Origin: a virus
Lineage: Duplodnaviria; Caudoviricetes
Reading direction: 5' to 3' (one strand)
DNA length: 52,785 bases
IMG/VR virus record: IMGVR_UViG_3300042291_002130
Span: 1 to 52,785 of that record
Shown here: positions 37,899 through 52,785 of the stretch, piece by piece
Position numbering within the stretch: position 1 is the stretch's first letter
How the letters are laid out: every line of letters begins with the position of its first letter
Translations under genes and position numbers: made by a program
The notes under the pieces: model-generated
The model's database searches: none
Told to the model about the DNA's origin: nothing
What the model saw: the letters and a program-made list of their open reading frames with translations, nothing else

Positions 37899-38510
37899 AT
37901 GAAATCGCTTATACATATAGTTTTACTATTTATTACAACTCTTGCCTTTTCTCAATGGAGTAGAAGCTTTAGATTTAGTGATGATGTATATTATGAAAAT
38001 CATATTTATAAAACGGTTGAGATAGCCTTTGAAAATAGTTATGATAACACAATTGAGTGGAAAGTATGGATGTTGTCAGATATTTTAATAGAACATGAAC
38101 TAGATAATTTACTTGACTATCGAACTCAACGTGGACAAGTCGGACTAGGTAATATAATTAGTCCAGTATTGGATAGCATATATTTTAATGTCGCGGCTGC
38201 ACATAAAGTATGTCCACTAGATTGGAGGTTACCTAGGATAGGAGAATGGGATACGTTAATGATATCTACGAGTCGATCTCAAAAGGAGTTTATGTTTCCA
38301 AATCTTCTTGGATATCGATCATATTCAATAGAAAATGTTGGAGATGCAGTATACAAAAGAAATAAATATCTAATCGGTGGATATTGGTGGGCAGAACCGA
38401 ATGAATTAAATACTAATTCAATTCAATTAGATACTAATTACAATTATAATAAAGGTAGTGGCGACGCTTGGGATAGAGCGACCGTCCGGTGCATTAGAGA
38501 AAAATATTAA
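37899..38510 (+). CDS. Secreted FISUMP (Fibrobacter succinogenes major paralogous domain)-like protein
   Basis: Bacteroidota-type signal peptide (...LAFSQ); YFN..AA..VCP.DWRLP...EW..L, GGYWW, VRCI. Confidence 0.7.
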   Translation: MKSLIHIVLLFITTLAFSQWSRSFRFSDDVYYENHIYKTVEIAFENSYDNTIEWKVWMLSDILIEHELDNLLDYRTQRGQVGLGNIISPVLDSIYFNVAAAHKVCPLDWRLPRIGEWDTLMISTSRSQKEFMFPNLLGYRSYSIENVGDAVYKRNKYLIGGYWWAEPNELNTNSIQLDTNYNYNKGSGDAWDRATVRCIREKY

Positions 38511-38607
38511 ATACTATACTATGAAAAAGACTATTATTGGATTGCTTGCATTTTTAGCTGGATTTATTATTACTCAAATTATTTTTTACTATTTACTAAA
38601 ATAATTT

Positions 38608-38853
38608 ATGACTACTGAAATGTTAGAAGAGGTTGCTGCAAACTTAGCAAACCCAAATGTATGTAAAACTCAAAATTGGATTGAAGGAGCTCAATGGGCA
38701 TTAACTAATCAATTCAGTAAAGAAGAAATTAAACTTATTAAAAAATCTCTTGATTTTTATTGGGACCAATGGAATGCTTCTCATGACAGCAATAAAAAGG
38801 ATTGGGATACTACTCAAGTATTATTTAAAAAAATAAAAGAAAATGAAAGATAA
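38608..38853 (+). CDS. 'LEE(A/V)A...GAxW' family paralog 1
   Basis: EMLEEVAA...WIEGAQWA...FSKEE. Confidence 0.55.
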   Translation: MTTEMLEEVAANLANPNVCKTQNWIEGAQWALTNQFSKEEIKLIKKSLDFYWDQWNASHDSNKKDWDTTQVLFKKIKENER

Positions 38854-39004
38854 TCCATTTGTAGATAAGTGCATTGCTCAATCAAAATTAATTGAGTTAT
38901 ATGAACAACAGCTTGTAGATTTAAGTATGCTGTCTAAAATTGAATTGGGTGATGATGTAATTGCAGAGATCATACGATTAAAAGCAGATATTAATATAGT
39001 ATAA
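38843..39004 (+). CDS. Small hypothetical protein (53 aa; below the ORF-track cutoff)
   Basis: Translated by hand: MKDNPFVDKCIAQSKLIELYEQQ... Confidence 0.5.
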   Translation: MKDNPFVDKCIAQSKLIELYEQQLVDLSMLSKIELGDDVIAEIIRLKADINIV

Positions 39005-39028
39005 CAATAATACATAAATATTATTGTT

Positions 39029-39286
39029 ATGAAACAAGAAACATTAGAAGAAGCAGCTGAAAATTATGGATGGAGAATCAAAACAAATACATTCTCTGAT
39101 CCAGTAAAAGCAAATGACTTAGCCAATTCTGCTAAACACGACTTTATAAATGGTGCTAATTACCAAGCTGAAGGAATGTATAGTGAGGAAGATTTAAGGC
39201 GAGCATATACAGTTGGAAAACATGGTGGAGTAAATCAAACGTATTATGATTTTGATGATTGGTTTAAACAAATTAAAAAGAAATAG
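39029..39286 (+). CDS. 'KETLEEAAE' family paralog 2
   Basis: KQETLEEAAE...FINGANYQAEGMYSEED...WFKQIKKK. Confidence 0.65.
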   Translation: MKQETLEEAAENYGWRIKTNTFSDPVKANDLANSAKHDFINGANYQAEGMYSEEDLRRAYTVGKHGGVNQTYYDFDDWFKQIKKK

Positions 39287-39288
39287 TT

Positions 39289-39603
39289 ATGGAAAAAGTA
39301 ATTAGAGATGGTAAAGTAGCTGTTCTTATTTCAAGAGGATTTGGTGCAGGCTGGTCTACTTGGAATACTGAATTTCCAGAACTTATATTCCACCCTAAAA
39401 TTGTTGAATTAGTTGAACAAGATAAAGCTACGACTATACTTGAAGATGACTGGATAGCAGAGAACTTAGGTCACCGTGTCTATACTGGTGGTGCACTCGA
39501 TTTAGAGATCGTATGGTTACCTGAAGGAACCAAATTTATGATTAATGAATATGACGGGTCTGAAAGTATTATTACCTTAGATGATTTAGTATTTACTGCA
39601 TAA
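39289..39603 (+). CDS. Conserved phage hypothetical protein
   Basis: VAVLIS.GFGAGWSTWN...F.P...L.I.WLPEGTKF.I.EYDGSE. Confidence 0.7.
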   Translation: MEKVIRDGKVAVLISRGFGAGWSTWNTEFPELIFHPKIVELVEQDKATTILEDDWIAENLGHRVYTGGALDLEIVWLPEGTKFMINEYDGSESIITLDDLVFTA

Positions 39604-39646
39604 CTACTTGAGGTAACTCAGTTATATTATTATAAAAAGAAATAGT

Positions 39647-40357
39647 ATGAAAAATATATTTATATTACCAACAGACCAACCAAGTAGATTGAGATTTTTT
39701 TGCGGTAGATTAGAGTTAATGAGATTAGTACCTAAAAAATCTGATATAATTTTTCAACACATCTATATCACATCTGATGAAGAGATTAAAGATGGAGATT
39801 GGATGATTAGAGGTAATGAACAACCAACATTAGTTACTCCTAATTTCTTTTGGGATTTTGGGGTTAGATATTATAAAATCATCCTAACAACAGACCCAAC
39901 TCTAATTGCAGATGGTGTACAAGCTATTGATGATGAGTTCTTAGAATGGTTTGTAAAGAATCCTACTTGTGATTTTGTTGAAGTTGATAGAGACGAAAGA
40001 GAAGTTGGAAATCACTTAGGTGGAATTGCTACTGAATATGGTTATTACAAAATCATCATACCAGAAGAAGAACCTAAAAAAGAAACATTAGAAGAAGCTG
40101 CTGAAAAGTATGCTAATAAAGAATTAAATAATGAAGTAACTTCAAAAGTTGGAAATTTCTATGGGTTTAGTAGTTCATTTATGGAAGGTGCTAAATGGCA
40201 ATCTGAAAAACTGTATAATGAAGAAGATGTCAGAGAATTACTTATGAAAGCTTTAACACATAATGACCATAATCTTTGTGGTTCATTGGTTACAGTAGAA
40301 GGTGAAATAAGAACTGCAAATTTTGGAGTTTGGTTTGAAGAAAATAAAAAGAAATAG
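39647..40357 (+). CDS. Two-module protein ending in a 'KETLEEAAE' module
   Basis: N-module KIILTTD..LI.DGVQAIDDEFLEWFVKNP; C-module KETLEEAAE...FMEGAKWQ...YNEED...WFEENKKK. Confidence 0.65.
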   Translation: MKNIFILPTDQPSRLRFFCGRLELMRLVPKKSDIIFQHIYITSDEEIKDGDWMIRGNEQPTLVTPNFFWDFGVRYYKIILTTDPTLIADGVQAIDDEFLEWFVKNPTCDFVEVDRDEREVGNHLGGIATEYGYYKIIIPEEEPKKETLEEAAEKYANKELNNEVTSKVGNFYGFSSSFMEGAKWQSEKLYNEEDVRELLMKALTHNDHNLCGSLVTVEGEIRTANFGVWFEENKKK

Positions 40358-40358
40358 C

Positions 40359-40568
40359 ATGGAAAAAGAAACATTAGACGAAGCTGCTGAACGACATGAC
40401 TCAGATAGAGATTCATTTATATCTGGTGCTAATTGGCAAGCCCAAAGAATGTACAGTAGGCAAGATATAATCGACTTTGTGTACTTCATTAATAGTAGAC
40501 ACTTCAATAGGTATACAGTAGATACCGATGAAGTTGATTTATTTATTGAACAATTTAAAAAAGGATAA
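40359..40568 (+). CDS. 'KETLEEAAE' family paralog 4 (start moved to 40359)
   Basis: MEKETLDEAAE...FISGANWQAQRMYS...FIEQFKKG. Confidence 0.65.
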   Translation: MEKETLDEAAERHDSDRDSFISGANWQAQRMYSRQDIIDFVYFINSRHFNRYTVDTDEVDLFIEQFKKG

Positions 40569-40588
40569 ATTTTTAGTAAGTGGTATTT

Positions 40589-40705
40589 AGTCAGGTGGCG
40601 GAATGGAGTGGGGTGTCCTCGCTCGTTGGTAGACGCACATATCCATACAGGGATGACACAGTACTGTATTACTGTGTCTTACAAGTTCGAATCTTGTCCT
40701 GACTA
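40589..40705 (+). tRNA. tRNA-like RNA 1 (Leu-like scaffold, D-loop insertion, non-canonical anticodon arm)
   Basis: Acceptor AGTCAGG/CCTGACT-A; T arm ACAAG-TTCGAAT-CTTGT; D arm GCG...AGACGC with an inserted GAGTGGGG/CCTCGCTC hairpin; 9-bp variable arm GACACAGTA/TACTGTGTC. Confidence 0.7.
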
Positions 40706-40725
40706 CAAAAATTAAGTAGAGAAAA

Positions 40726-40923
40726 ATGAAGTTATTAAAGGTTGAAGAGTGGAATTATCATATCATATACATAAATGACAATGAAAATTACCAGGTATAT
40801 CGAAGAATAGACCAAACCCGTTGGGAAAAGTACCATAAGAATCAATGGAGACCGATTACTGACTACTCAGCATTAGAAAAACTATTTACCCAAAGGGATA
40901 CCACAAGAGACCAGGTAAAATAA
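40726..40923 (+). CDS. Hypothetical protein following tRNA-like RNA 1
   Basis: AGAGAAAAATG start context. Confidence 0.55.
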   Translation: MKLLKVEEWNYHIIYINDNENYQVYRRIDQTRWEKYHKNQWRPITDYSALEKLFTQRDTTRDQVK

Positions 40924-41014
40924 TCTGATTATGGACCATCACCCTACCTATTGGGGTTCACCGGCCACTCTACTTGATCCCCAAACTAGAAAAAATTGAA
41001 CCCTAAATAGACAA

Positions 41015-41040
41015 CTAGTCTCGGGACTACGGAGTCCAGC
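41015..41040 (+). repeat. ACTACGGAGT hairpin/palindrome site, first copy (CTAGTC-N-GGGACTACGGAGTCCAGC)
   Basis: Exact core at 41026, 41901, 43435, 43762, 44953, 47249, 50480, 52755; one mismatch at 42729 and 43199; all on the + strand. Confidence 0.85.
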
Positions 41041-41132
41041 GTTAGACTCACACTTAAAATATAAACAAGTAATCCTAGAGACTTTTTATTGTCTAAAATC
41101 TTTAGTATAATAGTTTTATAAATGATAACTTT

Positions 41133-41208
41133 AGTCAGGTGAATGGTAATTGGTAACCGAAACCGTCCAGGTGATGTTGAGATGCAGGTTCGAATCCTGT
41201 CCTGACTA
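41133..41208 (+). tRNA. tRNA-like RNA 2 (acceptor + T arm intact; D/anticodon region unrecognisable)
   Basis: AGTCAGG...GCAGG-TTCGAAT-CCTGT-CCTGACT-A; TAGTATAATA ~20 nt upstream. Confidence 0.65.
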
Positions 41209-41233
41209 CTAACTTAAAATAAAAATAAAAATT

Positions 41234-41506
41234 ATGAAAAAATTTGAAGACTTAGAGTTTGAAAAAATTGAAAACGATACATTCAAAACCGGTGTGACTA
41301 GTAGAATGGTGTTTGAAAATGGGTATGGAGTATCTGTCGTTTCGCACACATATTCATATGGTGGTAAGGAAGGTTTATATGAAGTTGCGGTATTAGGTAA
41401 AGATGGAGACTTAACTTATGATACACCAGTAACAAATGACGTAATTGGATATTTAGAACCAGTAGAAGTTACTGATATTATGAAACAAGTTCAAGAGTTA
41501 AAATAA
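41234..41506 (+). CDS. Conserved phage hypothetical protein
   Basis: FENGYGVSVV...SYGG..GLYEVAVL...YDTPVTNDVIGYL. Confidence 0.7.
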   Translation: MKKFEDLEFEKIENDTFKTGVTSRMVFENGYGVSVVSHTYSYGGKEGLYEVAVLGKDGDLTYDTPVTNDVIGYLEPVEVTDIMKQVQELK

Positions 41507-41510
41507 CATC

Positions 41511-41596
41511 AGTCAGGTGGCGGAATGGTAGACGCTATACTTAAGCAGTTGAAGCTGGGTAATTCAACGATACAGGTTCGAATCCTGTCCTGACTA
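41511..41596 (+). tRNA. tRNA-like RNA 3 (Leu-like D arm, no canonical anticodon stem)
   Basis: AGTCAGG-TG-GCGGAATGGTAGACGC...GTTGAA/TTCAAC...ACAGG-TTCGAAT-CCTGT-CCTGACT-A. Confidence 0.7.
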
Positions 41597-41615
41597 CTCT
41601 AATATCGAGAGAAAA

Positions 41616-41882
41616 ATGATAAACCTAGAAGAGATCAAGGAGATCCGAGCCTACACCAGTGGTATTGTTGAAATGGGCTCAGTAACTATTATTATCAATA
41701 ACCGGGAATGGCAGTTTGATATAGAGGAATGGGCAGTACACGGCAACTTGGAATTTCGGGTCTACTTAGCTAGATGGCAAGACTCTAAAGACCTAGCACT
41801 AGAATTAGAAGAAGGTAGAGTAGTAGACAACCACTTTTGCAGATTTATCCAAGATGAATATTACAGGATTACAGCCAAATAA
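41616..41882 (+). CDS. Hypothetical protein following tRNA-like RNA 3
   Basis: AGAGAAAAATG start context, as at 40726. Confidence 0.55.
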   Translation: MINLEEIKEIRAYTSGIVEMGSVTIIINNREWQFDIEEWAVHGNLEFRVYLARWQDSKDLALELEEGRVVDNHFCRFIQDEYYRITAK

Positions 41883-41897
41883 TCACTAGTCTATACC

Positions 41898-42031
41898 GGG
41901 ACTACGGAGTCCAGCTACTAATACTACTATACTAAATAACTAGAGATAAAGATAAGAGAAAAGATCTCTAGATAGAAGAGACCCCAATAGAGATACGCAA
42001 TAACCAGGAACGGAGATCCTAGAGACCCCAA
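41898..42031 (+). repeat. ~135-bp imperfect direct repeat, copy A
   Basis: GGACTAC(G/A)GAGTCCAGCTAC...TCTCTA.ATAGA.GAGACCCCAA.AGAGAT...CCAGGAAC.GAGATCCTAGAGACCCCAA, shared with 43196-43332. Confidence 0.85.
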
Positions 42032-42050
42032 CCAACCAGTCAGCTATACA

Positions 42051-42692
42051 TCAGCCGTGCATCAGCCGTACATCAGCCCATGCCCTAAACCCATCAATAT
42101 CTGCTCTCGACCCAAGTATATGTATGTCCTTTGGATCAAATACCGCTAACTCTACCCGGTCTCTACGATTTGCTTTCAAATGACTAAGATCGACTTCAAT
42201 GCCGCCTCCTTGTTCTAAACTCTTCTTGACAGAATCAAGTTCTCCCTCGTCTTTTAGTTCATTTGGATAACCCAATATTGAATCATATTGACTCATATCA
42301 AAGTGCTGCTTAAGTTTTGCAACGCTCTGAGTAGTCAAACCGGTCTTTTTAAGTATTTCAGCAGCGTTCTCCCTGTTAATTATTAGAGGATTTTTTACGT
42401 TTACTTTAGCAAGTAGTGTTCTTGTTTTAAGAAGTTTTTCAATAAACTTGGGAAGATTGCTCTGCACATCGTAAAAAGAAAAGTAGGCACCTCCTAAATA
42501 GCTCAGTCTAAACTCATCAAACTTTTTAGCGCTTGTTTTGTGAAACATGACCTGTTTTATCCTACTTTCTGGAAATACTGTTTCAAGATATTCCAAATAA
42601 TCTTGATCAGTGCCTATTTCTCGAAGGATATCATCAATTTCTTCTAACTTTATGTGATTTTCATTAATAAATTCATTAAAGCTAACTAACAT
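42051..42692 (-). CDS. ADP-ribosyltransferase-like protein (ART-PolyVal type) with CTS N-terminus
   Basis: MFHKT...FDEF...GAYFS...VNVKNP...YDSI...ELAVFDPKDI (H-Y-E ART pattern); starts MLVSFNEFINE. Confidence 0.6.
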   Translation of the reverse strand: MLVSFNEFINENHIKLEEIDDILREIGTDQDYLEYLETVFPESRIKQVMFHKTSAKKFDEFRLSYLGGAYFSFYDVQSNLPKFIEKLLKTRTLLAKVNVKNPLIINRENAAEILKKTGLTTQSVAKLKQHFDMSQYDSILGYPNELKDEGELDSVKKSLEQGGGIEVDLSHLKANRRDRVELAVFDPKDIHILGSRADIDGFRAWADVRLMHG

Positions 42693-42758
42693 GTTTTCTC
42701 TTTTTTAGTTATTTATTCTAGTCACGGGACTACGGAATCCAGCTCTAGCTATACTAAA

Positions 42759-42786
42759 AGAGTCTCTACTATTGGGCAGAGACTCT
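42759..42786. terminator. Hairpin AGAGTCTCT-N10-AGAGACTCT, probable terminator for 42800-43135
   Basis: Perfect 9-bp stem with a short U-run on the minus strand. Confidence 0.55.
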
Positions 42787-42799
42787 ATTATAATTAGTA

Positions 42800-43135
42800 T
42801 TAGTTAAACTGAACTCTAGCAGTTCCTAATTGTATTTTGTTAGCCCACTTCTTAACTTCAGCTTTAGATCCTGTAAAAGAAACCTCGAACTCAGCATCAT
42901 ATGGTTCATCGTATTTTGGAGTACTGCCTCTTCTTCCCCAACCAGTAAGAGCAGGTTTGCCTACTAATTTTAATCCTTCCGGAAAACCTATTCTATCAAA
43001 GTCTTCTTTAAGAGCTTTAGCTGCTTCTGATTTACTCATTTGATCAGCCCAAGTCCAGTCAAACTCTAATTCAATAGTAGCTTTTCCAAGGGTCTCTTTG
43101 CTTTCATTAAGCCATTCAGTAAATTGTTTAATCAT
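42800..43135 (-). CDS. Small virion-internal protein candidate
   Basis: MIKQFTEWLNES; AATAAATA upstream. Confidence 0.6.
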   Translation of the reverse strand: MIKQFTEWLNESKETLGKATIELEFDWTWADQMSKSEAAKALKEDFDRIGFPEGLKLVGKPALTGWGRRGSTPKYDEPYDAEFEVSFTGSKAEVKKWANKIQLGTARVQFN

Positions 43136-43195
43136 CTTCTAAAAATTTTTTATTTTATTTATTTATTATACTATATTTATTTATTATACTACAAC

Positions 43196-43332
43196 AGGAC
43201 TACAGAGTCCAGCTACCCAGTATCAGTATACCAGAGAATCAAGATAAAAAGAAATAGGTGAAGAGTCTCTAAATAGACGAGACCCCAACAGAGATGCCTA
43301 ATCACCAGGAACAGAGATCCTAGAGACCCCAA
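43196..43332 (+). repeat. ~135-bp imperfect direct repeat, copy B
   Basis: See copy A at 41898-42031. Confidence 0.85.
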
Positions 43333-43463
43333 TCTACTACCTGACTACCCATGCCCCTGATCTAGAACAGTCTTTACCCCTGACCCAGAACTACTTTTAA
43401 ATGCGCCGTCATGTCGCTCCGGCCACCTACGTTTACTACGGAGTCCCGAACGGGAACTTCTCG

Positions 43464-43538
43464 AGGGGCTCAACTTAGGGGTTCAACTTGCCAATTGGGT
43501 ATCACACCGGTGCCACCAACTTTCAAATGAACCCCTAA
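43464..43538. repeat. 13-bp tandem repeat plus 11-bp inverted repeat upstream of the recombinase
   Basis: AGGGG(C/T)TCAACTT x2 at 43464-43489; TTAGGGGTTCA (43475) / TGAACCCCTAA (43528). Confidence 0.7.
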
Positions 43539-43569
43539 TCTCGGGATAAATAATTAAAAAAGTTAAACT

Positions 43570-44259
43570 ATGTGGAGACCAGAGGCACTTGAAGTTCTTG
43601 GATGCAGTATCAGCACATTCAAGAGATATGTAAAAGCTGGCAAGATCAGGTATGATCAAGTCGGGAACCGTTACTTATATTGGGACGATGACGTCTATAA
43701 GCTTAAAGGAAAGCACCTAATCAGGGGTCACTGGTCAGTAGCTTATTGCAGAGTAGCCGGGACTACGGAGTCCGACCGGAGGCTTATGCTCCAACAGCAG
43801 CAGCTAGTCAGGAACTGGTGTGCACAGCGAGGTATCTCTCTAGATAAGTTGTACGATGACTGGGCTCCCGCTACAGACTTCTCGCTAGACTGGAGACCCG
43901 CTCTGCATGACCTGATCCAGGACGTGATCAAAAAGAGGGTGTCAGTAATTATAGTAGAGACTACTGACAGACTGGCCCGAGTTGGCTGGGAGCTCTTTCC
44001 TGCCTGGTTCCAATATTATGGGGTAGAGGTAGTAGTAATCAACTCGGCCATCACCGTGCCAGAATATCAGCTAGAACAGGAAAAGGATCTCACGAATCTC
44101 TTACTTAAAGCTGGTGTAGATCGACTAGACAAGCTTGGTGCTGACTCCTTGCCTAAACCTAAGAAGAGGGAGAAGCGTGAACATCCTGGCAAGATAACTC
44201 CAAACTGGGAAGGAAAACCAGAGGAGCCAACTAAACGGGATCTTTCAGATCTAATGTAA
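43570..44259 (+). CDS. IS607 TnpA-like serine recombinase (N-terminal HTH + resolvase domain), catalytic Ser replaced by Ala
   Basis: EALEVLGCSISTFKRYVKAGKI HTH; AYCRVA instead of Y.RVS; RPAL..L; DRLARVG.E...GVEVVVIN. No tnpB and no IS ends seen. Confidence 0.85.
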   Translation: MWRPEALEVLGCSISTFKRYVKAGKIRYDQVGNRYLYWDDDVYKLKGKHLIRGHWSVAYCRVAGTTESDRRLMLQQQQLVRNWCAQRGISLDKLYDDWAPATDFSLDWRPALHDLIQDVIKKRVSVIIVETTDRLARVGWELFPAWFQYYGVEVVVINSAITVPEYQLEQEKDLTNLLLKAGVDRLDKLGADSLPKPKKREKREHPGKITPNWEGKPEEPTKRDLSDLM

Positions 44260-44309
44260 TTCTTCAGTTCTTTAGCAGAGACACTCGCCAGCCAAGATAA
44301 ATAAACAAT

Positions 44310-44729
44310 ATGAAATCATTTATAGAATTTATAGCAGAGAGTCGGGCATTTGACCTAGACCACTTGCCTAGACTAGGGGAGATTCTTAGCTCGGCTGAAA
44401 GGAACATGCGGGCTCCATACACTTGGGCATTTGTAAGATTTATAGCAGATCAACTAAGGCTGAGCCAAACCGGAGATATTGTAGAGATTGGACCTAGCCA
44501 CTTTAGATTTAGAGACATGCAGGAGATCTACGCCAAGGATCCTCTTTCTTGGGGTCAAAAATCATACAATAATTCATGGTTTAAATATTTTACCGCAAAG
44601 ATAAGATATGTCTGCGAGATGAGTGAAGGCTTAAGATCGGAGGCTATAACTTTCTGGCTCTCTACAGAGGAATATGAAAAGGTATTTGGTATGCCCCAGG
44701 AAATAGATACTATATTCGCTGATTTTTAA
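44310..44729 (+). CDS. Internal head protein with near-canonical T4 capsid-targeting sequence
   Basis: MKSFIEFIAES versus T4 IPII/IPIII MKTYQEFIAE; GATAAATA at 44296. Confidence 0.7.
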   Translation: MKSFIEFIAESRAFDLDHLPRLGEILSSAERNMRAPYTWAFVRFIADQLRLSQTGDIVEIGPSHFRFRDMQEIYAKDPLSWGQKSYNNSWFKYFTAKIRYVCEMSEGLRSEAITFWLSTEEYEKVFGMPQEIDTIFADF

Positions 44730-44976
44730 ATAGGTCCTCCTAAGGGACTCTCCCTTTCTGGATATTAGAATATACTAGTGAGATGAGCTAGCCTCGCCAT
44801 AGGAAAGAGTACCTCTCTAGATTGGGCTCCGGATTCCATGGCATACTAGGCACCCAAACGTCCCAGCGGGCAGGGAAATCCAGAGACTCGGCTCGCTCCC
44901 GTGTACAGGCGGGTGTCACGACGACGCGCGATAGCAGAGACTCGGTAGGGTTACTACGGAGTAAACCCCTTAACCC

Positions 44977-45004
44977 AAAAAATGGGAACCTACTGGCTCC
45001 CATT
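44977..45004 (-). terminator. Rho-independent terminator of the minus-strand block
   Basis: AATGGGA/TCCCATT stem with a U-tract on the minus strand. Confidence 0.65.
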
Positions 45005-45024
45005 CCTAGTCGTCAAACTACCTC

Positions 45025-46200
45025 TTATAATTGCGCGTACTGAGCGAATTGAAGGTCGTAACCTGCATTTACGCCTTTAGCGAAAAGTTCTCCTGCTTGT
45101 GCTTTCAATTCCCACTGATCGGCTAATTCAATTCCTGAATTGTTTGAACCTAGGTAGGTAAGTGAATTTACAACATCCCATATTGACATTCCTGTCTTGA
45201 TAAAACTTTTTTGTTTTTCATTTAACTTGTATGGGTCTTGGCCTTTTTGCATAATGCGGGCCATTGTATCTCTGTGTCCATCAAAGTAGTTACGTTCGAT
45301 AGTATCAATAAAGTTCTTTTTATATTGTGGGTCAGACTCTCTTACTTTACGTTGAGCCAACATCATAGCACTGTCAACTTCAAATAAGCTTGCCTTAGTG
45401 CCAACAGCTGTTGCTAGGGATCCGGCGAATGCAGCAGGTACGAAGCCAGACTTTTTCATAGTATCTACTTTATTTAAGAAGATTCGGATATCGTCGCCAC
45501 TAGTTCCACCTAGTTTAAACTTTTCTTCAAAGTGTAGGTCACGGTTAGAACCAATAGATCCGCTACCGAAACTTACTCTTAATCCATTAGAGCATACTAG
45601 GCGGGTATTATAAGTCTCAATAATAGTATCTTTACTCGACTGGGTAATTGAGAACCCAAATTTAAAGAACTCGTCTTTGCCTGCTCCTGGGAAACCTACC
45701 TCTTCTGAGTTTAGGAAGTTAATGGATGAGGTTCCGCCATTTGGACTGTGGTCAACCGTCTCTATAATTAGGGAAGGGTGTTCGTTCATGATTTTACTAG
45801 TCATATCGAATAGTGAATCATTAGTCAATCGTCGGTATCTCTTAGGATCGCAGATATCAATTACTTCTCGAGTTTGGGTATTAGCAATCAGCAAGACATC
45901 CTTTGCTCCAATACCTCGACGGTATTCGTTTAGTGCATTCATAAATGCTGCAGCCACTTTACCATTGTCGTTCTTAATAAACTCTCTAGTCAAGGAAGCA
46001 TTCATCTTCAGCATGCCAGCAAGTTTCAAGAAAAAGTTAGGGCCAACCTTTACTAGTGTTCCGCCGATTTCAAGTTCATTACGGCTGAACGAAGTGTCAG
46101 TTAATTTAAGTGCAGAAATTGGCACCTGTTTTGTTGCGTGCTCATTAGCTACCATTACTTCTCTGATTGCATCGAACTGGGAATTTGTTACTTCTTTCAT
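45025..46200 (-). CDS. DUF932/DUF945-like protein
   Basis: FGFSIT.S...RLVCSNGL; C-terminal SIWDVVNSLTY. Confidence 0.6.
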   Translation of the reverse strand: MKEVTNSQFDAIREVMVANEHATKQVPISALKLTDTSFSRNELEIGGTLVKVGPNFFLKLAGMLKMNASLTREFIKNDNGKVAAAFMNALNEYRRGIGAKDVLLIANTQTREVIDICDPKRYRRLTNDSLFDMTSKIMNEHPSLIIETVDHSPNGGTSSINFLNSEEVGFPGAGKDEFFKFGFSITQSSKDTIIETYNTRLVCSNGLRVSFGSGSIGSNRDLHFEEKFKLGGTSGDDIRIFLNKVDTMKKSGFVPAAFAGSLATAVGTKASLFEVDSAMMLAQRKVRESDPQYKKNFIDTIERNYFDGHRDTMARIMQKGQDPYKLNEKQKSFIKTGMSIWDVVNSLTYLGSNNSGIELADQWELKAQAGELFAKGVNAGYDLQFAQYAQL

Positions 46201-46265
46201 AATTAAATTTTTTTTAGGTTAGTTTGACTAATATTATAATACTATTTTGGTTTTAACTTTTAAAA

Positions 46266-46295
46266 TTTGGGGAGCATTATTTTTAACTCCCCAAA
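46266..46295. terminator. Hairpin terminator after the RadA-like gene
   Basis: TTTGGGGAG/CTCCCCAAA. Confidence 0.65.
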
Positions 46296-46302
46296 GATAT
46301 TT

Positions 46303-47508
46303 TTATCGACCCATTGAGATAGCTACGTCTGTTCCTAAGTCATCGCTCTCGCCATTGATATAATCAATTATTTCAACCATCTCATCAGTTACCTCTTCTA
46401 CGGAGTGATCTTCTTCGACTGCTCGTGAACCGCCTAGGAAGATATTCTCAAACTCGCGAGTCAAGTCTTGTTGACGTAGGGTTTCAGTATTCTCAAAGCT
46501 TCTAATCTCTTCAGTCTCTTGGAATCGAGCAGTATCGTATACTACTGCACCAGTCTCGTCCAGCTTGTAGTAGAGTCTCTTGCCAGTGCCGCTACCTCCT
46601 CGTCTGTTCTTTGAGAACTCAATATAACGTTGGCCAGCCAAGTCGAAGCGTATCTCTAGCATGGCAGTAGTTGCGTGCTTAAGATAAGTAGAACCTACAT
46701 ACTGACCACCTTTAGTCATGTGTTGAATTGCCAAGACTGCGTTACCGCATTTCTCTGCAGCGTCTATCATCATGTTAGTTAACCAGCTTTCTGCTTTAGT
46801 TGACTTCCAGCCATGCACCTCTTTTAATTTTACTAAGACATCTTGGTAAGAATCTAATAGGATAATATCATGGTCGCCATTGAAACTCTTCTCTAAGACT
46901 TGGGATAATTGACCGTTCTTAACATAGTCCATTAGGAGTAGGGTAGGAACCTTGCCAATAGCTGGGGTCTTGCGGTAATAGAACATAATATCGTTACGTG
47001 TCATCTCGCTAGAAATGTAGAGTATCTTCGCCTCTGGATTTTGGTCTACGATAGAAGCTAAGAGATCTAGCATGACAGTTGACTTGCCGACGCCTGACTC
47101 TCCAATTACAATATTAACTGTTCCGCCATAGAGTCCACCACCTTCTTCGTGATCAGAAAAGAGATCGTCGATCTTCTTGCCTGCCTTGAATAATCCAAAG
47201 CTTGGGAATTCCATGTCCTCTACTCGGATAATATTAGGCTCGTCAGTTACTACGGAGTGACCTATGCGTGGCTCAGCAGGTGTCTCTACAACCGGCGTAC
47301 TTGCTACTGAACTTGCACCATGACCCTCTGCCTGAATCTTTTTGATTACTCCATTAAATAGTCCATAAGAGATATCTTCGTCTTTAGGCACCTTATCAAA
47401 TGCTGTGAATAGATCCAATACCTTAGCTCTTGGTACAACTCCTTCATGGGTATCGTTAAACCATTGACGAACTTCTTGCTCTTTCTTTCCTCCTTTAATC
47501 TCAATCAT
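46303..47508 (-). CDS. RadA/Sms-like RecA-superfamily ATPase
   Basis: GESGVGKST, LYISSE, ILLDSYQ, HMTKGG..VGS..LKH, KNRRG; no N-terminal Zn finger and no Lon-like C-domain. Confidence 0.8.
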   Translation of the reverse strand: MIEIKGGKKEQEVRQWFNDTHEGVVPRAKVLDLFTAFDKVPKDEDISYGLFNGVIKKIQAEGHGASSVASTPVVETPAEPRIGHSVVTDEPNIIRVEDMEFPSFGLFKAGKKIDDLFSDHEEGGGLYGGTVNIVIGESGVGKSTVMLDLLASIVDQNPEAKILYISSEMTRNDIMFYYRKTPAIGKVPTLLLMDYVKNGQLSQVLEKSFNGDHDIILLDSYQDVLVKLKEVHGWKSTKAESWLTNMMIDAAEKCGNAVLAIQHMTKGGQYVGSTYLKHATTAMLEIRFDLAGQRYIEFSKNRRGGSGTGKRLYYKLDETGAVVYDTARFQETEEIRSFENTETLRQQDLTREFENIFLGGSRAVEEDHSVEEVTDEMVEIIDYINGESDDLGTDVAISMGR

Positions 47509-47567
47509 AATTTCTAATTTTTTTAGGTTAGTTTGACTTAATTATTATACTAAAAAACTGTTGTACT

Positions 47568-48005
47568 TTAAAACTTATTACGACTTAATTCATGTAATCT
47601 TGTTAGTTCTTCAGCGGTTAAACTTTCGACTCCTCCTCTGTCACTGATAAGCTCTAACAACTCGTCTAGGTTAAGAGTACACTGCTCGTCTCCATACAGG
47701 TGGTCAAAGTCTGCATTTGCTTGAGCAAAAGCTGGAAACATCAGGTGGCATAGGTGTACGCCGGTGTCTCCAGCTGGGTCCCATACAATTACAGGTAGTG
47801 AGTCTCCATGCTCGTCAGCAACCTTTTTATAGAGGTCTACTATCTCGTCAGGTGTAAAGTCTGTTTTAATAATAGATATCACGCCAAATGGAGTACCGCA
47901 TCCTACACCTTTTTGGGAACGCCCGCTGATAGTCTGAATAATTGCGTATTCTTTTTGAGTTGGCATATTAGAACCAAAGCGAAAGATAACTAATTTCTTT
48001 TTCAT
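47568..48005 (-). CDS. Hypothetical early protein with DUF6576-like C-terminal helix pair
   Basis: LDELLELISDRGGVESLTAEELTRL. Confidence 0.55.
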   Translation of the reverse strand: MKKKLVIFRFGSNMPTQKEYAIIQTISGRSQKGVGCGTPFGVISIIKTDFTPDEIVDLYKKVADEHGDSLPVIVWDPAGDTGVHLCHLMFPAFAQANADFDHLYGDEQCTLNLDELLELISDRGGVESLTAEELTRLHELSRNKF

Positions 48006-48030
48006 AATCGTTTTGTTTTTAAGTTATATA

Positions 48031-48063
48031 GTAAATATAACCAATCACTATTAATCTTGACAA
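48031..48063 (-). promoter_or_regulatory. Repeated early promoter, Bacteroidota-type (-33 TTG, -7 TAnnTTT(G/A))
   Basis: Minus strand TTGT(C/A)...GGTTATATTT(A/G). Copies at 48031-48063, 48816-48848, 49060-49092, 49418-49450 (exact TATATTTG), 51242-51274, 52690-52722; each is 20-30 nt before an ATG. Confidence 0.8.
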
Positions 48064-48118
48064 TTGGGTGAAAATCTTTTTGCACAAAAGTCCAGAGACA
48101 CTTGGCCTGTCTGCATGA

Positions 48119-48146
48119 AAAAAGCCAGTCTCCTTAGAAACTGGCT
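48119..48146 (-). terminator. Rho-independent terminator
   Basis: AGCCAGT/ACTGGCT stem with a U-tract on the minus strand. Confidence 0.65.
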
Positions 48147-48172
48147 CGACTCGGAAAAGCAGCAACCTTAGT

Positions 48173-48586
48173 CTAAATTTTTATTTCATGGTTAATTTCT
48201 TTTGCTAATTCAAATGGAGATCCTCCGTGACTTGCTGCCCACCATCTCCCATCTAATCCAATCACATAACCGTACTCTTCATAGTCTGATTTAAAAAAGT
48301 CTTCGACACTGTTATCGATATGGAAGGTTAGGTCTTCTCCACGGTCTCTGTGATATGCGACAGTTACTCCACCTTGAGGAGACCCGAATGAGTGGGGTCC
48401 ATTTGGCTCTACCTGCTCGTCTAATGAAGCGAGATCTCCCAACTCCACCAAGGCTAGAGTCTTTGCTCTATCATAACACTCTAATAGGATCTTACCATTA
48501 TGTGAGACGTATCCATCAAAGTGACAGTAAACTGATTTTACTGTGCCGTCTTCTAATTCGATTCCAATTCTGCTTCTAGTTGCCAT
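48173..48586 (-). CDS. Conserved phage early hypothetical protein
   Basis: MATRSRIG...SVYCHFDGY..HNG..L...LGDL.SL...AYHRDRGE...EEYGY. Confidence 0.7.
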   Translation of the reverse strand: MATRSRIGIELEDGTVKSVYCHFDGYVSHNGKILLECYDRAKTLALVELGDLASLDEQVEPNGPHSFGSPQGGVTVAYHRDRGEDLTFHIDNSVEDFFKSDYEEYGYVIGLDGRWWAASHGGSPFELAKEINHEIKI

Positions 48587-48597
48587 AGTATCTCTTT

Positions 48598-49651
48598 TTA
48601 TTGGTTAGGTAATTTCTTTTTTAAGGTTCTTAATCGAGCCTTTAATTTTTTAATCTCTAATTTACGAAAGTAAGGTCCGTGATTCCATGGTGTACATCCT
48701 TCAGGCTGTGCCCAGACACTAACTATTTTAGTCTTGTCGTTTTTAAGAAATTCAATTCTTTCTTCGATGGCTTTGATTTGTTCAAGTATCATAGGTTATT
48801 GGGTTAAGTGCTTAAGTAAATATAACCATTATTCTTTAATCTTGACAATCCTGTGAAAGATTTTTTTGCTTTTGATATTCTTCATGGCACTGTTCAAATT
48901 CTTCAGTTGTGAATACCTTTACTATACTTCCTCCTTCAATCGTTTTAAGACGCTCTCTTAATTGAACCGATTCTACTATTTCAAAGTGTCGGTCTCCTCT
49001 TGGTGAGATGATTAACACAATTCTGATTTCTTCCATGATTTGTATGTTTTAGGTTATAAGTAAATATAACCATTACTTTTTAATCTTGACAATTCTATTA
49101 AAACTATTTTTTAAAAACTTCCAGCACGTTCTACTGCAAATGTTAACTCTATTCCCCATGGAAACTTGTATGCTCTGAAACCACCAGTACCTGCGTTTGA
49201 ACTTGGCTCTTCACTCTCTATTACTGTGGCTAAACTGAATCTAGCAGTACCTCTTAATTCAAAGATAGTCGGTCTTCTGTACTCGTCAGAGGATTGCCAT
49301 TTCCAATCAACTTGATCCATGTGAGCTAACACCTTTTCAAAATCAAAGCGATCCATTATCTTGTCTCTCTGTTCGTATAATTCTTCTTTAGTCATAATAA
49401 GATATTTAAGTTATAATACAAATATAACCAACTCTTTTTAATCTTGACAATCTAGCTGGATAAAAAGTCTAGAGACCCTCGTCCTCGGTGATTGCGGATA
49501 TTGAATCCAATAAGGAGATAAGTTCGGCCCATACAAAGCGTTCAACGTCGGTCTCTGCCGTGCTCAACTCTTGTTGGTACATTTCTTTGCGGTTAGCTAC
49601 AAATTCAGAGACGCGCTCTAGCTTAGTTACACTTAAATCTTTTACTATCAT
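48598..49651 (-). CDS. Four small early hypothetical proteins (48598-48792, 48836-49036, 49111-49395, 49469-49651)
   Basis: The first three each have their own copy of the early promoter. Confidence 0.6.
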
Positions 49652-49652
49652 A

Positions 49653-49910
49653 TTAATAATGTTTTACTTTTACAATGGTTGCCGCTTGCTGGCCACCTAC
49701 TTGTTTAATGGTATAAGCACCTTTTACTTTAATCCATTCTAATGTTTTGCGATACGTTGAGTCAGGTTTACTTATCTCTCCAAGAAAGAGAGCGATTTGA
49801 TATGCTTGTTTTACTGTATGACAAACGCCGAGTGTTTCTCTCAGCGCTTGCTCCCATTCAATATCGGGTTCTTTATTACTCATTACAAGATACTTATCCC
49901 TTCTTTCCAT
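49653..49910 (-). CDS. Hypothetical protein
   Basis: ORF within the operon. Confidence 0.5.
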   Translation of the reverse strand: MERRDKYLVMSNKEPDIEWEQALRETLGVCHTVKQAYQIALFLGEISKPDSTYRKTLEWIKVKGAYTIKQVGGQQAATIVKVKHY

Positions 49911-50151
49911 CCTCTATCTTTTTTTGAAGGTCGAGAATAAACGCGCAATCTTCGTAGTCTTCCTTCTCTTCTAAATGGTTTAAGATTACTTTCATTGCTG
50001 TTAATTTATTCTCTATTGGTGCATCATCTTCTACTGCAAAGTCAGGAAAAGTTTTTAGAGATGTCAAGACTAGATCCATAAATTTATCGTAGTCTCGATC
50101 CCGAACTTCCATCAACATTTGAATAAACTCTTGCTCGCTAAAATCATCCAT
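49894..50151 (-). CDS. Small acidic protein with UVR-like C-terminal motif
   Basis: EEKEDYEDCAFILD resembles the UvrB/C motif E.YE.AA.LRD. Confidence 0.5.
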   Translation of the reverse strand: MDDFSEQEFIQMLMEVRDRDYDKFMDLVLTSLKTFPDFAVEDDAPIENKLTAMKVILNHLEEKEDYEDCAFILDLQKKIEDGKKG

Positions 50152-50473
50152 TCTTTTCTAGGTTTATTGAGTTATGTGCATCTACTATAATCAAGCAAGC
50201 GGTATCCTCGCCAAATGTCTCCATCAATTGATTGACTAACATATGGTATCCGCTATTAACAAGCTCTATTCGTAGGTCAGTTAACTCTTCATCATTAACG
50301 GTCAGCACAGATTTGCCGTGGTCGTCGATGAGGTCCCTCATAACATCTCTATAAATAGCTGTTGCATGAAAATATTGCACTAATTGTTTTGGAGATACTT
50401 TCCCAATCTCCTTTACCTGGTCAACAGTTAAAACTACCTCATCTTCACTGTTAAATATAATTCCCTGTTTCAT
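50144..50473 (-). CDS. Hypothetical protein
   Basis: Downstream of the sigma factor; an ACTACGGAGT site lies in its leader. Confidence 0.55.
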   Translation of the reverse strand: MKQGIIFNSEDEVVLTVDQVKEIGKVSPKQLVQYFHATAIYRDVMRDLIDDHGKSVLTVNDEELTDLRIELVNSGYHMLVNQLMETFGEDTACLIIVDAHNSINLEKNG

Positions 50474-50494
50474 ATCGTTACTACGGAGTAAAAT

Positions 50495-51214
50495 TTATAA
50501 TACTTCTAATTTCATTTTTTGAATCGATGCCTTTACGATTTGAGAAACTCGGACGTTAGTCATCTCGTATTTTTCTGCAATAATATCGGTTGGCATCTCA
50601 TAGTCTCGGCCTATTCCAAAGTAATCCATAATAATTGCTCGGTCTCGGTCTTTAAGAAGGTTTAACGCACACTTAACTTTAAATCGGATTGAATCCATCT
50701 CTATATTGAACTCAACTTCTGATCCAGATTTTAAGACAATATCTCCAATGGTATTTCCACCTTCATCTCCAATTGGTGCATCGATGTCTACCTTACGCGG
50801 AATCTCAATGTCTTCGCCTTTCATCTTTGCTTTATAGATAGCATACTCTTGATTGTGAGGCAGTCTTACAATACGACCAGTCTTAGCAACAGACTCGTTT
50901 AGTTTTTTACGAATCCACAACTGAGCATAGTTAATGAATCGCTGACCGTCTCTAGGTTTGAAATTAAGAGCTGCTTCAAGTAGACCCATGTTTCCTTCTT
51001 GGATTAAGTCATCGATTGGCACACCTTGTCCAATGTGGCGATTTGCAAGCTTAACGACAAACTTTAAGTTTGCGCTTACTAATTTTTCTACTGCTTTAGC
51101 GTCTCCCTCTTGGATTGCTACTACTAATTGTTTCTCTTCGCCGATAGTAAGGGGCGCGTTCTTTTGTATTGTTTTAAAATACTTAGGTAGGTTTTCTGAT
51201 GTTTCGAATTTCAT
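50495..51214 (-). CDS. RNA polymerase sigma-70 family factor (RpoD/SigA-like, no region 1.1)
   Basis: KLVSANLKFVV, DLIQEGNMGL..AA..F, RFINYA..WIRK, RIVRLP, region 4 L..RDR.I...FGI...RVSQI. Confidence 0.92.
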   Translation of the reverse strand: MKFETSENLPKYFKTIQKNAPLTIGEEKQLVVAIQEGDAKAVEKLVSANLKFVVKLANRHIGQGVPIDDLIQEGNMGLLEAALNFKPRDGQRFINYAQLWIRKKLNESVAKTGRIVRLPHNQEYAIYKAKMKGEDIEIPRKVDIDAPIGDEGGNTIGDIVLKSGSEVEFNIEMDSIRFKVKCALNLLKDRDRAIIMDYFGIGRDYEMPTDIIAEKYEMTNVRVSQIVKASIQKMKLEVL

Positions 51215-51330
51215 AAGTTCTATTTGTTTTTAAGTTATATAGTAAATATATCTATAAGTTTAATAAAAGTACAATCCTGGTGAAAACTTTTTTAAAATAA
51301 TTCCAGAGACTCCAAACCAGCAGACAAAGA

Positions 51331-51349
51331 AAAAGCGGATTGCTCCGCT
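51331..51349 (-). terminator. Rho-independent terminator
   Basis: AGCGGA-TTGC-TCCGCT with a U-tract on the minus strand. Confidence 0.65.
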
Positions 51350-51355
51350 CTTTAC

Positions 51356-51568
51356 CTATTCTTCTTCATCTGAAGTACAGGTTATTAGCTTTCCGTGCTT
51401 GACGGCTTCCCAATATTCTGACTCTGTCATGGAGTATCCACCATTTAAATCTTTTTGTACACAGTCTGAGCAAGTAATTGCATCTGCATCGATGTCAACA
51501 TTACTAACTACTTCTCCACAACACTTGCATGCGAGATTTTTAAATCCTAATGTTCTCTTCTTACTCAT
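51356..51568 (-). CDS. Small Zn-finger protein
   Basis: CKCC...CSDC. Confidence 0.6.
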   Translation of the reverse strand: MSKKRTLGFKNLACKCCGEVVSNVDIDADAITCSDCVQKDLNGGYSMTESEYWEAVKHGKLITCTSDEEE

Positions 51569-51870
51569 AACCTAGATTTTAATTGTGATAACTCAGAGCA
51601 TAATTCATACTCCTCTATTTCTGTGTAATATTCAATACATCCGTCAACTGCGGTTGCCATTGCTGGTCGGTCTAACATAAAGACAGACTCGGTCTCTTCT
51701 ATCATAAATACTGGAATCTCGTCCAGTTCATGCTCAATCATTCGGCATACAGCTAGGAACACGGCATCTGCTATCTCTGCACGATAGTGTATTGCAAAAG
51801 CATCCCCATCTGTTAGGCCTTCCGCGCTAAACGTTGGGAAAGATAATTCTATGTTTTCATCCTCTTCCAT
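51565..51870 (-). CDS. Acidic protein with UVR-like C-terminal motif
   Basis: YYTEIEEYELCSEL. Confidence 0.5.
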   Translation of the reverse strand: MEEDENIELSFPTFSAEGLTDGDAFAIHYRAEIADAVFLAVCRMIEHELDEIPVFMIEETESVFMLDRPAMATAVDGCIEYYTEIEEYELCSELSQLKSRL

Positions 51871-51889
51871 TACTATATTATACTATTGA

Positions 51890-52666
51890 TTAGTCTTGGG
51901 TTTTTATTAGACCTATTTTTTGTGCAGCATAGAATCTTTCTAATTCAATCTCGGCTCTTAGCTTGGCTCCGTCCAGCGTCTCTTCAAACTGGTCAGCTGG
52001 CAAGAACTTAGATACTTCAGTAATCTTAAGATAGATGCCCAATACTTTTTCCTTGTGATTAAGGAGAAGCCAGACTTTATCCTGCCCGGCTCTTCCCTCG
52101 ACTATCCTGTCTCTAAGCGGTCCCCACTCCATTAGAGAACAGTTTGTAAGAATCCACGATGGTCGTATACTCGAGAGCGGCCATCCGACTCTCTAACAAC
52201 AACATTACTTCCACTCCAGCGAACAGTTAATCCATCTCGACTATAGACATTATCCACTGTTTGTAAGTGTCCTACTAGCGACTCGACTGTCCCATCTCTC
52301 CTTACCACCAGCCATTCACCTAATTGACTATTATAGTCAGCATCAATAACTCCTCGAGTAATTGCAACTTCCTGAATCCTACGATTTGGGTCTAACCAAG
52401 TAAGTAGCTCTCCATCTTTAATCCAATATTCCATAGCTTTTGTTTTTAAGTTCTTAAGTAAATATAAAGTCTGTGTGGAAATAGCCTCCATCACTTTGGC
52501 GACCCCATTCTCCTTGAGCTAACTCGTCAGTCCACTTAACTTTTACTAGGCGTGTCTCAGACGTATCGCAATCTTCGATTACCGTTACCTTAGCTCCTGG
52601 CGATGCTGCGTAATATTGCGGAATTAGAGTATTCCATTCTCCAATCGTTCCTGTCTTAATTATCAT
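51890..52666 (-). CDS. Three early hypothetical proteins (51890-52132, 52132-52434, 52454-52666)
   Basis: Operon behind the promoter at 52690-52722. Confidence 0.55.
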
Positions 52667-52785
52667 ATCGTTTTGTTTTTAAGTTATAAGTAAATATAAC
52701 CATTACATTTAAACAAGTACAATCTTATTGAAACTTTTTTACTAGAGACTCTTTACTACGGAGTAAAAAGAAAAGGGTCAGCTTG

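Follow-up and report, generated by a model that had tools for sequence, protein, structure and literature searches.

Why should a phage genome carry the same 10-base word again and again on one strand, and only in one part of its length? The question is raised by ACTACGGAGT, hereafter the word, in the IMG/VR virus record IMGVR_UViG_3300042291_002130, a stretch of 52,785 bases that was analysed whole and is called the window here. It is rare for a DNA word to be strand-polar, and all known examples (Chi, KOPS, Ter and the nick sites of phages) exposed a directional DNA-reading machine. Among the products of the window (CheckV completeness ~21%) are a portal protein, proteins of baseplate and tail, enzymes of NAD salvage and tRNAs; it is therefore one piece of the genome of a large tailed phage, about 21% of that of a jumbo phage. 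We found that the word is a real, strongly non-random and conserved feature, and that it is a polar word at the level of DNA. From the genes that accompany it we infer a reader and a purpose, the candidate reader being a neighbouring IS607-type TnpA-like protein.

Counts and strand of the word in the window

In the window, ACTACGGAGT occurs eight times on the + strand and never on the − strand, between positions 41026 and 52764, whereas 0.04 copies are expected by chance and 100 shuffles gave a maximum of one. A one-mismatch search returned 12 matches against 1.24 expected, the exact copies included. Three of the others are near-copies on the + strand, co-oriented with the word, two of them with one mismatch each (42729 and 43199) and the third, TCTACGGAGT, at 46397; the sole remaining match (23194, − strand) is unrelated. 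The 7-mer TACGGAG is restricted to nine + strand word places, and the count of its complement is zero.

These two-strand counts bear out the initial annotation, which had listed the eight exact copies, the two one-mismatch copies and one partial copy, all on the + strand, and had noticed none in the first 40 kb; the exact copies all lie after 41 kb, and the partial copy was located at 46397. Two copies had also been placed inside genes of opposite strands, and these are the copies at 43762, in the + strand TnpA-like gene, and at 47249, in the − strand gene of a RecA-fold ATPase. The core of the word is palindromic at 8 of its 10 positions, with the asymmetry confined to the position 4/7 pair, and this symmetry fits a protein that recognises duplex DNA.

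The word field in related genomes

Relatives were found by scanning with two proteins (ATPase and TnpA-like) and with short DNA patterns. In ten related records, copies on the majority and on the other strand numbered 14/0 (G001), 9/0 (G002), 13/1 (G003), 15/0 (G004), 4/0 (G005), 15/0 (G006), 8/0 (G011), 16/0 (G013), 6/0 (G015) and 15/0 (G016). With the window (8/0), 123 of 124 copies over 11 records are co-oriented, or 99 of 100 when the near-duplicates G002 (of G003) and G006 (of G004) are left out. The single opposite-pointing copy of the family stands at position 25475 of the G003 contig.

In contigs of ~125 kb, one interior stretch holds all copies and the other ~100 kb are free of the word. 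This word field measures 22.2 kb of 128.5 kb in G004 (15 copies), 25.2 kb of 127.5 kb in G013 (16 copies) and 27.3 kb in G016. The spacing between words is 0.1–6 kb with a median of ~1.4 kb, and with a coefficient of variation of 0.56–0.87 it is somewhat evener than random. A sister clade, whose ATPase is ~50–55% identical, carries the variant ACTAGGGAGT, which is one-stranded in 52 of 52 copies over five records (10/0, 10/0, 12/0, 12/0 and 8/0). In complete or near-complete sister genomes of 271 kb and 253 kb all copies of ACTAGGGAGT fall within 8.2 and 11 kb, ten of them within the 8.2 kb of the complete 271-kb genome. Some genomes carry the C and G variants of the word together, and co-oriented. 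Within a genome the word is co-oriented, occupies one domain and is independent of local gene direction.

Beyond these clades, six unrelated large phage records reached by chance have 1–2 copies each, and two 14-mer scans of the viral collection returned 103 and at least 121 stretches, mostly single chance matches. Distant blastn of 40500–48000 against 50,697 deposited phage records gave no match. Full-text searches of the literature (supplementary files excepted) with the word and its complement found no description of it; the papers listed concerned mainly mouse, human, yeast or fish, with one primer correction, and none bore on phage signals. As far as literature searches on the word, on IS607 in jumbo phages and on domesticated IS607 TnpA reach, the word field is undescribed.

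Selection on the DNA and reversal of polarity

At least six word sites are positionally conserved between lineages with only ~67% nucleotide identity. The ATPase word sites fall in a poorly aligned linker, where the word codes SVV, and in the acidic C-terminal tail, where it codes SVE; around both sites, neighbouring residues and segment lengths vary among lineages. In the TnpA-like gene the word codes TTE of GTTES in the window, G001, G002, G004 and L278, and the alignment places GTTES exactly at the position of the catalytic serine motif. One-mismatch variants of the word are almost absent, except the co-oriented TCTACGGAGT, and the two perfectly palindromic variants have one occurrence in total. 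This pattern shows that the word is a selected DNA-level signal.

From ~42 kb on, nearly all genes of the window are small and on the − strand, a promoter-like element that recurs six times in the window stands ahead of each of these small genes, and by its layout the region looks like an early-gene block. The window word is antisense to this − strand block and sense to + strand genes. When the ATPase gene is set on +, the polarity of the window is found in 28 of 29 locus rows, and only G013 is reversed. Over ~125 kb, within the field and on both of its flanks, the contigs of G013 and G004 run collinear and are equally oriented, and yet each of the 16 words of G013 is on the opposite strand with respect to these genes. 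Its sites are 5–300 nt away from the G004 sites and therefore are not simple in-place flips: in the G013 ATPase gene a sense word codes GTTES ~10 residues upstream of the SVV of other lineages, and the tail word site is missing. Since the reversal occurs despite collinear genes, the invariant is the agreement among the words of one genome. The TnpA-like protein of G013 (L260:4502-5095) has a 4–5-residue insertion in its N-terminal DNA-binding domain, a single case in the sole reversed lineage.

Because G013 reverses all words on collinear genes, this comparison argues against the word acting as an mRNA element or promoter. An orientation independent of transcription, and with it a polar signal at the DNA level, had been proposed in the initial annotation, and both the presence of words in genes of both strands and the G013 reversal support it. 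Only one functional block of the jumbo phage genome carries the word, which overrides coding sequence, even the active site of the adjoining transposase-like gene, and can be reversed wholesale.

The TnpA-like gene and its word cluster

The TnpA-like protein of the window has an N-terminal winged helix followed by a serine-recombinase catalytic domain. Pfam matched HTH_17 at residues 5–37 (E = 3e-4, below the cut-off) and Resolvase at residues 57–161 (E = 1.6e-10), and the NCBIfam IS607 transposase model covered residues 5–164 (E = 1.4e-22; 80 bits, under the curated 110). Profile searches found structures of IS607-family TnpA (3lhk, 1.6e-16; 3lhf; 3ilx; 6dgc, 1.7e-11; 6dgb, 7e-6), and the ten best Foldseek matches of the predicted model were chains of these same entries, with a mean predicted local distance difference test (pLDDT) score of only 64.6 for the model. 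Its N-terminal helix-helix-hairpin-helix domain was predicted at a pLDDT of 87–91.

The catalytic motif is altered. The window protein has YCRVAGTTESDR in place of YxRVS(S/T)xxQ, with the catalytic serine replaced, and in the locus table (39 rows including duplicates, 36 with a TnpA-like match) canonical RVS occurs in none of the readable catalytic motifs. In a separate alignment only G016 retains nearby serines (RVDSSSQ), and 26 distant canonical homologues all have RVS. The gene stands at one syntenic place in all relatives; no TnpB-like match was found among neighbouring open reading frames (ORFs), and transposon ends were not recognised. At locus L338 there was no TnpA-like match at E ≤ 1e-5, and a closer query found a divergent copy at E = 6e-16 with words at its start; the other two loci lacking a match stop short of the expected place.

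Word arrays occur at 10 of 10 loci with a TnpA-like protein at least 41% identical, and at 0 of 26 loci with canonical YxRVS TnpA of 30–35% identity. Within 700 nt upstream of the TnpA-like gene, 1–5 sense words were found in 30 of 36 rows, three antisense words in 2 of 36 (both G013) and none in 4 of 36, and word density is highest at the 5′ side of the gene. Words beside the gene are 68–240 bp apart in the window's clade, and sister clades have 4–5 words phased at 57–58 bp, 200–400 nt upstream of the gene; in these phased arrays the word alone is conserved between repeats. Wherever the word field occurs, a TnpA-like gene without the catalytic serine is found as well, and words cluster at its 5′ side. 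Among the papers listed by literature searches, none described a domesticated IS607 TnpA in phages. Beside distant canonical TnpA genes, two further candidates for polar words were rejected: an 8/0 word in L286–L293 is a coding tandem repeat, and a polar word in L284 is AT-rich background.

A possible oriented docking site for a serine-less TnpA

What might read such a word? It is probably a docking site for a protein. More specifically, and with somewhat less than even confidence, we favour an oriented docking site for a catalytically dead IS607-type TnpA. On this explanation, [A/T]CTA(C/G)GGAGT would be an oriented recognition site on double-stranded DNA, and its reader would be the neighbouring IS607-family TnpA-like protein, which would have been kept as a DNA-binding protein after loss of its catalytic serine. 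The protein would nucleate on the dense word cluster just upstream of its own gene, and would then engage 10–16 further co-oriented words, at ~1.4 kb median spacing, across the early-gene block. The block could in this way be marked or organised as one unit, through bridging, compacting or silencing, or by a polar obstacle.

According to PMC6188088, dimers of IS1535 TnpA bind cooperatively to short motifs repeated near the element ends, extend along the DNA and capture a second DNA in parallel, and this behaviour makes the serine-less protein the most economical candidate reader. TnpA of the IS607 family (IS1535, IS607 and ISC1926; PMC6188088) gives the best sequence and fold matches and shares the domain order of the phage protein, and the family motifs resemble the word in being short, asymmetric, of one direction and located at the 5′ side of the gene. 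Unlike in the IS607 family, the phage protein has no catalytic serine, no tnpB or transposon ends were recognised around it, and its gene keeps a single syntenic place throughout a phage family; unlike the IS607 motifs (~10 bp apart), the words lie 57 bp to kilobases apart, spread over a 22–27 kb block and into coding sequence.

Several points weigh against a TnpA reader. The ATPase and DUF932 genes co-occur with the word as faithfully as the TnpA-like gene does. IS1535 motifs lie within 60 bp of the element end, ~10 bp apart, whereas the words are 57 bp to 6 kb apart over 22–27 kb. Bridging by dimers has no obvious need for co-orientation over kilobases, which a tracking machine would fit better. 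Clean covariation between word variants and protein clades was not found, because C and G variants coexist in some genomes, and no motif resembling the word was found upstream of canonical IS607-type tnpA in other phages. The link between protein and word is one of association, and it gives us a lead from which we infer both the reader and what its binding would achieve.

It is conceivable, though rather unlikely, that a jumping-gene enzyme and its end motif were turned into an addressing system for a genome domain, with the early block as one switchable or foldable unit. Polarity would then be set only by agreement among words, and a lineage could reverse all of them. Oriented insulator or boundary elements would then have a counterpart in phages, and a serine transposase would have met a fate not seen before. 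Should the catalytically dead protein indeed read the word, it would represent an IS607-type serine transposase domesticated as an architectural or regulatory DNA-binding protein, a case that our literature searches indicate to be undescribed, and it would help to understand how large phages separate early from late parts of their genomes. Direct tests would need no more than a small protein and a site of 10 bp.

Other explanations of the word field

The words could instead be recognition sites of a phage nicking system that leaves one-strand interruptions in virion DNA, as in tf, T5 and the phiKMV group; we consider this quite unlikely. Phage tf, as described in PMC3517423, has 14 nick sites at a 9-mer that lies on one strand only and has almost no near-variants, at positions similar in relatives and independent of the two convergent transcription units, and its nicking is densest in one genome half. 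The nick sites of tf, T5 and phiKMV-like phages (PMC3517423) resemble the word as exact 9–10-base sequences on one strand, in ~14 copies, with few near-variants, at positions similar between relatives and independent of transcription direction, and the tf signature is the closest published one to the word field. Strict co-orientation and the strictness of the word also suit a nuclease. However, unlike in those phages, the word field covers <10% of the genome, one lineage is reversed, and the 4–5 words phased at 57–58 bp beside a DNA-binding-protein gene resemble cooperative binding sites. No nickase candidate was identified.

Near-perfect co-orientation at 0.1–6 kb spacing is typical of tracking processes, and the words could be a polar signal for a DNA-tracking machine (replisome, helicase, nuclease or translocase), like Chi, KOPS and Ter. 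The reader could then be the RadA-like ATPase or a host enzyme instead of TnpA. Strand polarity is essential to Chi, KOPS and Ter, which are read regardless of the genes they occupy, and the word shares both properties; where there is no intergenic space, words stand within long genes, their spacing is somewhat evener than random (coefficient of variation as above), and a RecA-fold ATPase gene is always adjacent. Chi, KOPS and Ter are distributed genome- or replichore-wide, are mostly 5–8 nt long (Ter 23 nt) and are oriented relative to replication. The word differs from the known polar words of 5–8 nt, which are host-specific and genome-wide: it has 10 nt, and all copies lie in one 8–27 kb domain, also in the complete 253–271 kb genomes. 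Moreover, G013 reverses polarity with collinear gene order and flanks, so that the external direction would need to change too, and the dense phased cluster by the TnpA-like gene would be left unexplained. We give a tracking signal a low probability.

An improbable explanation is that the TnpA-like protein, the phased cluster and the RadA-like ATPase are a captured replication module of initiator, iteron-like sites and helicase, in which the dispersed words titrate or pair with the origin cluster. It would account for fixed-phase direct repeats beside a DNA-binding-protein gene, and the AT-rich tract 43140–43195, which holds an 18-bp repeat, is next to the words at 43199 and 43435. The adjacent ATPase has DnaB-like and RadA-like matches, and the module 43340–47510 has 43% GC against 32% in the first 41 kb, which suggests a foreign origin. 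Against such a module, matches to initiator or origin families are absent, and those of the ATPase are weak and of a kind common to RecA folds in general; moreover, a site spread of 22–27 kb is unusual for iterons, and titration would not need strand co-orientation over kilobases.

Very improbable is a stand-alone promoter or other transcription signal, for example one for the sigma factor whose gene lies in the field. The sigma gene belongs to the block with which the field coincides, and the word keeps the early-gene sense in 28 of 29 rows (ATPase gene set on +). By a crude criterion, a terminator-like hairpin with a T-run on the gene strand immediately precedes 15 of 93 word sites, and several sites stand 1–6 nt before a start codon; others are inside genes. 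In parts of the field, read in gene sense, a terminator-like hairpin and T-run are followed by the word and then by the repeated promoter at variable distance. Against a promoter, the reversed copies of G013 would drive antisense transcription, phased arrays of 4–5 copies are unlike promoters, and distances to start codons or to the repeated promoter range from 1 to ~90 nt; an analysis of the flanks of the sites found no second conserved box at a fixed distance from the word. As weak evidence, 36 loci with sigma relatives ≤40% identical have neither the word nor the three-gene module. Promoter-early stem-loop (PeSL) cassettes are known from T4-type phages, and in part of the field, likewise, small early genes are separated by a recurring cassette that combines a terminator, the word and an early promoter. 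Unlike in PeSL cassettes, only some words abut the terminator (the 15 of 93), the promoter repeat is far commoner than the word, and the word also stands alone and inside genes. The word as part of a terminator was rejected on the same 15 of 93 sites.

Pairing of the flanks

The weakest alternative, a single-stranded hairpin or extruded cruciform with an ACGG loop and a covarying stem, serving for example as an N4-type promoter or priming site, is hardly credible: the core does hold a 3-bp inverted repeat (ACT/AGT), but its flanks neither covary nor give folding energies beyond those of shuffles. The initial annotation had read the flanks as covarying to keep such a stem, and had named the absence of stem covariation at homologous loci as grounds for refutation. 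In the window, 6 of the 8 exact copies have 2–3 Watson–Crick pairs beyond ACT/AGT. Among 94 distinct exact sites from 9 records, compared with shuffled partners, flank pairing was 0.44 against 0.38 at the first offset (p = 0.125) and 0.45 against 0.43 at the second (p = 0.33), pairing further out was at or below expectation, and the stem-length distribution equalled that of the shuffle. At six orthologous positions, two or more extra pairs were present in 9 of 27 copies, 4 of the 9 being the codon-constrained site in the TnpA-like gene, so that stems are not kept across relatives. DNA folding of the eight window sites gave −1.6 to −5.2 kcal/mol, with z-scores of −1.5 to +0.3 against shuffles, and ACTAGGGAGT keeps the outer triplets while its flanks are unpaired too.

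The impression of stems arises because the flanks have symmetric single-position preferences. In the 94 sites, A was found at −1 and −2 in 1 and 2 cases, and T at +1 and +2 in 5 and 0; these preferences mix freely at offset 1 (T..C 10 times, G..A 14 times). The hairpin promoters of the N4 virion RNA polymerase are short inverted repeats with a small loop, on one strand near early genes, and the word is like them in each of these respects. It is unlike them in its stem covariation and stability, which do not exceed shuffled controls, and in a direction that is not tied to transcription. The hairpin model appears largely refuted by these comparisons, which indicate that the word is not a hairpin.

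Genomic setting of the word field

The word copies of the window and the genes beside them are collected in Table 1. For the DUF932-like gene, a literature search found no definition of function among the papers listed.

Table 1. Word copies and associated genes in the window, in order of position
Feature	Position	Strand	Context
Exact word	41026..41035	+	Intergenic, ~100 nt upstream of tRNA-like gene 41133-41208
Exact word	41901..41910	+	18 nt past stop of ORF 41616-41882; opens 140-bp repeat copy 1 (41895-42036)
One-mismatch copy (position 9 G>A)	42729..42738	+	36 nt upstream of start of − strand ORF 42051-42692
One-mismatch copy (position 6 G>A)	43199..43208	+	Opens 140-bp repeat copy 2 (43193-43337); adjoins AT-rich tract 43140-43195
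Exact word	43435..43444	+	125 nt upstream of TnpA-like gene; position kept in G004, G002 (T variant) and G001
IS607-type TnpA-like gene	43570..44259	+	Opposite strand to the block; candidate word reader
Exact word	43762..43771	+	Inside TnpA-like gene; codes TTE of GTTES, at place of catalytic serine motif
Exact word	44953..44962	+	In − sense, just downstream of terminator-like hairpin that follows DUF932-like gene
DUF932-like gene	45025..46200	−	Atlas feature score 0.97; beside ATPase gene in all relatives examined
RecA-fold ATPase gene (AAA_25, RadA/Sms-like)	46303..47508	−	Holds two word copies
Variant TCTACGGAGT	46397..46406	+	Variable acidic C-terminal tail of ATPase; codes SVE on −; same place in G004, G002, G001 and G005
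Exact word	47249..47258	+	Poorly conserved ATPase linker; codes SVV on −
Exact word	50480..50489	+	In 21-nt gap between sigma-factor gene stop and start of next − strand ORF; position kept in G004, G011, G002 and G001
Sigma-70-family factor gene (regions 2 and 4)	50495..51214	−	Inside word field
Exact word	52755..52764	+	21 nt from window end; in − sense, after T-run and 14 nt upstream of promoter-like repeat 52677-52740

The promoter-like element of the early-gene block is ~64 nt long, with copies at 48018, 48803, 49047, 49405, 51229 and 52677, and blastn gives ~20 more matches in the early blocks of G004 and G003. It is similar to promoters of the −33/−7 type. The start codons of the small − strand genes are without obvious Shine–Dalgarno sequences. 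Several contigs break off within the field, at distances of 21 to ~650 nt from a word: the window (52785), G011, G005, G002, G015 and G001. These ends are probably assembly failures at the repeated promoter cassette, and they might also be what nick-related loss of coverage would give. Words might also be sites of recombination between cassettes: at indel breakpoints between close relatives, one homology block starts exactly at a word (G004 33592 / G011 13358), and others end at the promoter repeat, including a 66-nt G002/G003 overlap.

The sequence GTCTC/GAGAC is enriched in the word field on both strands, with 51 of its 82 window copies in the last 22% (densest after 40900), and frequently appears as GAGTCTCT, at 15–40 nt from a word, with the repeated promoter ~50 nt downstream. 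Directly after the word at 44953 lies a GC-rich, conserved non-coding stretch (44740–44950, − sense) with no Rfam match, and in G003 and G004, too, words are followed by sequences like it; the stretch may represent a small RNA or a region bound by protein. Across 38000–52785, the only Rfam matches at E ≤ 1 were two tRNAs.

Three tRNA-like 3′ ends (40682–40706, 41133–41208 and 41511–41597) have an identical 25-nt sequence; ARAGORN called one tRNA-Leu, the two Rfam matches are tRNAs, and the third tRNA-like sequence, at ~40.6 kb, was called by neither. The 140-bp direct repeat 41895–42036 / 43193–43337, each copy of which starts with a word copy, has ~86% identity over its distal 72 nt. Three paralogous small ORFs with two common conserved segments (repeat families D3 and D6) lie at 39029–40568. 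At 42040–42078, an 11-bp tandem repeat in three copies stands at the 3′ end of the − strand ORF 42051–42692.

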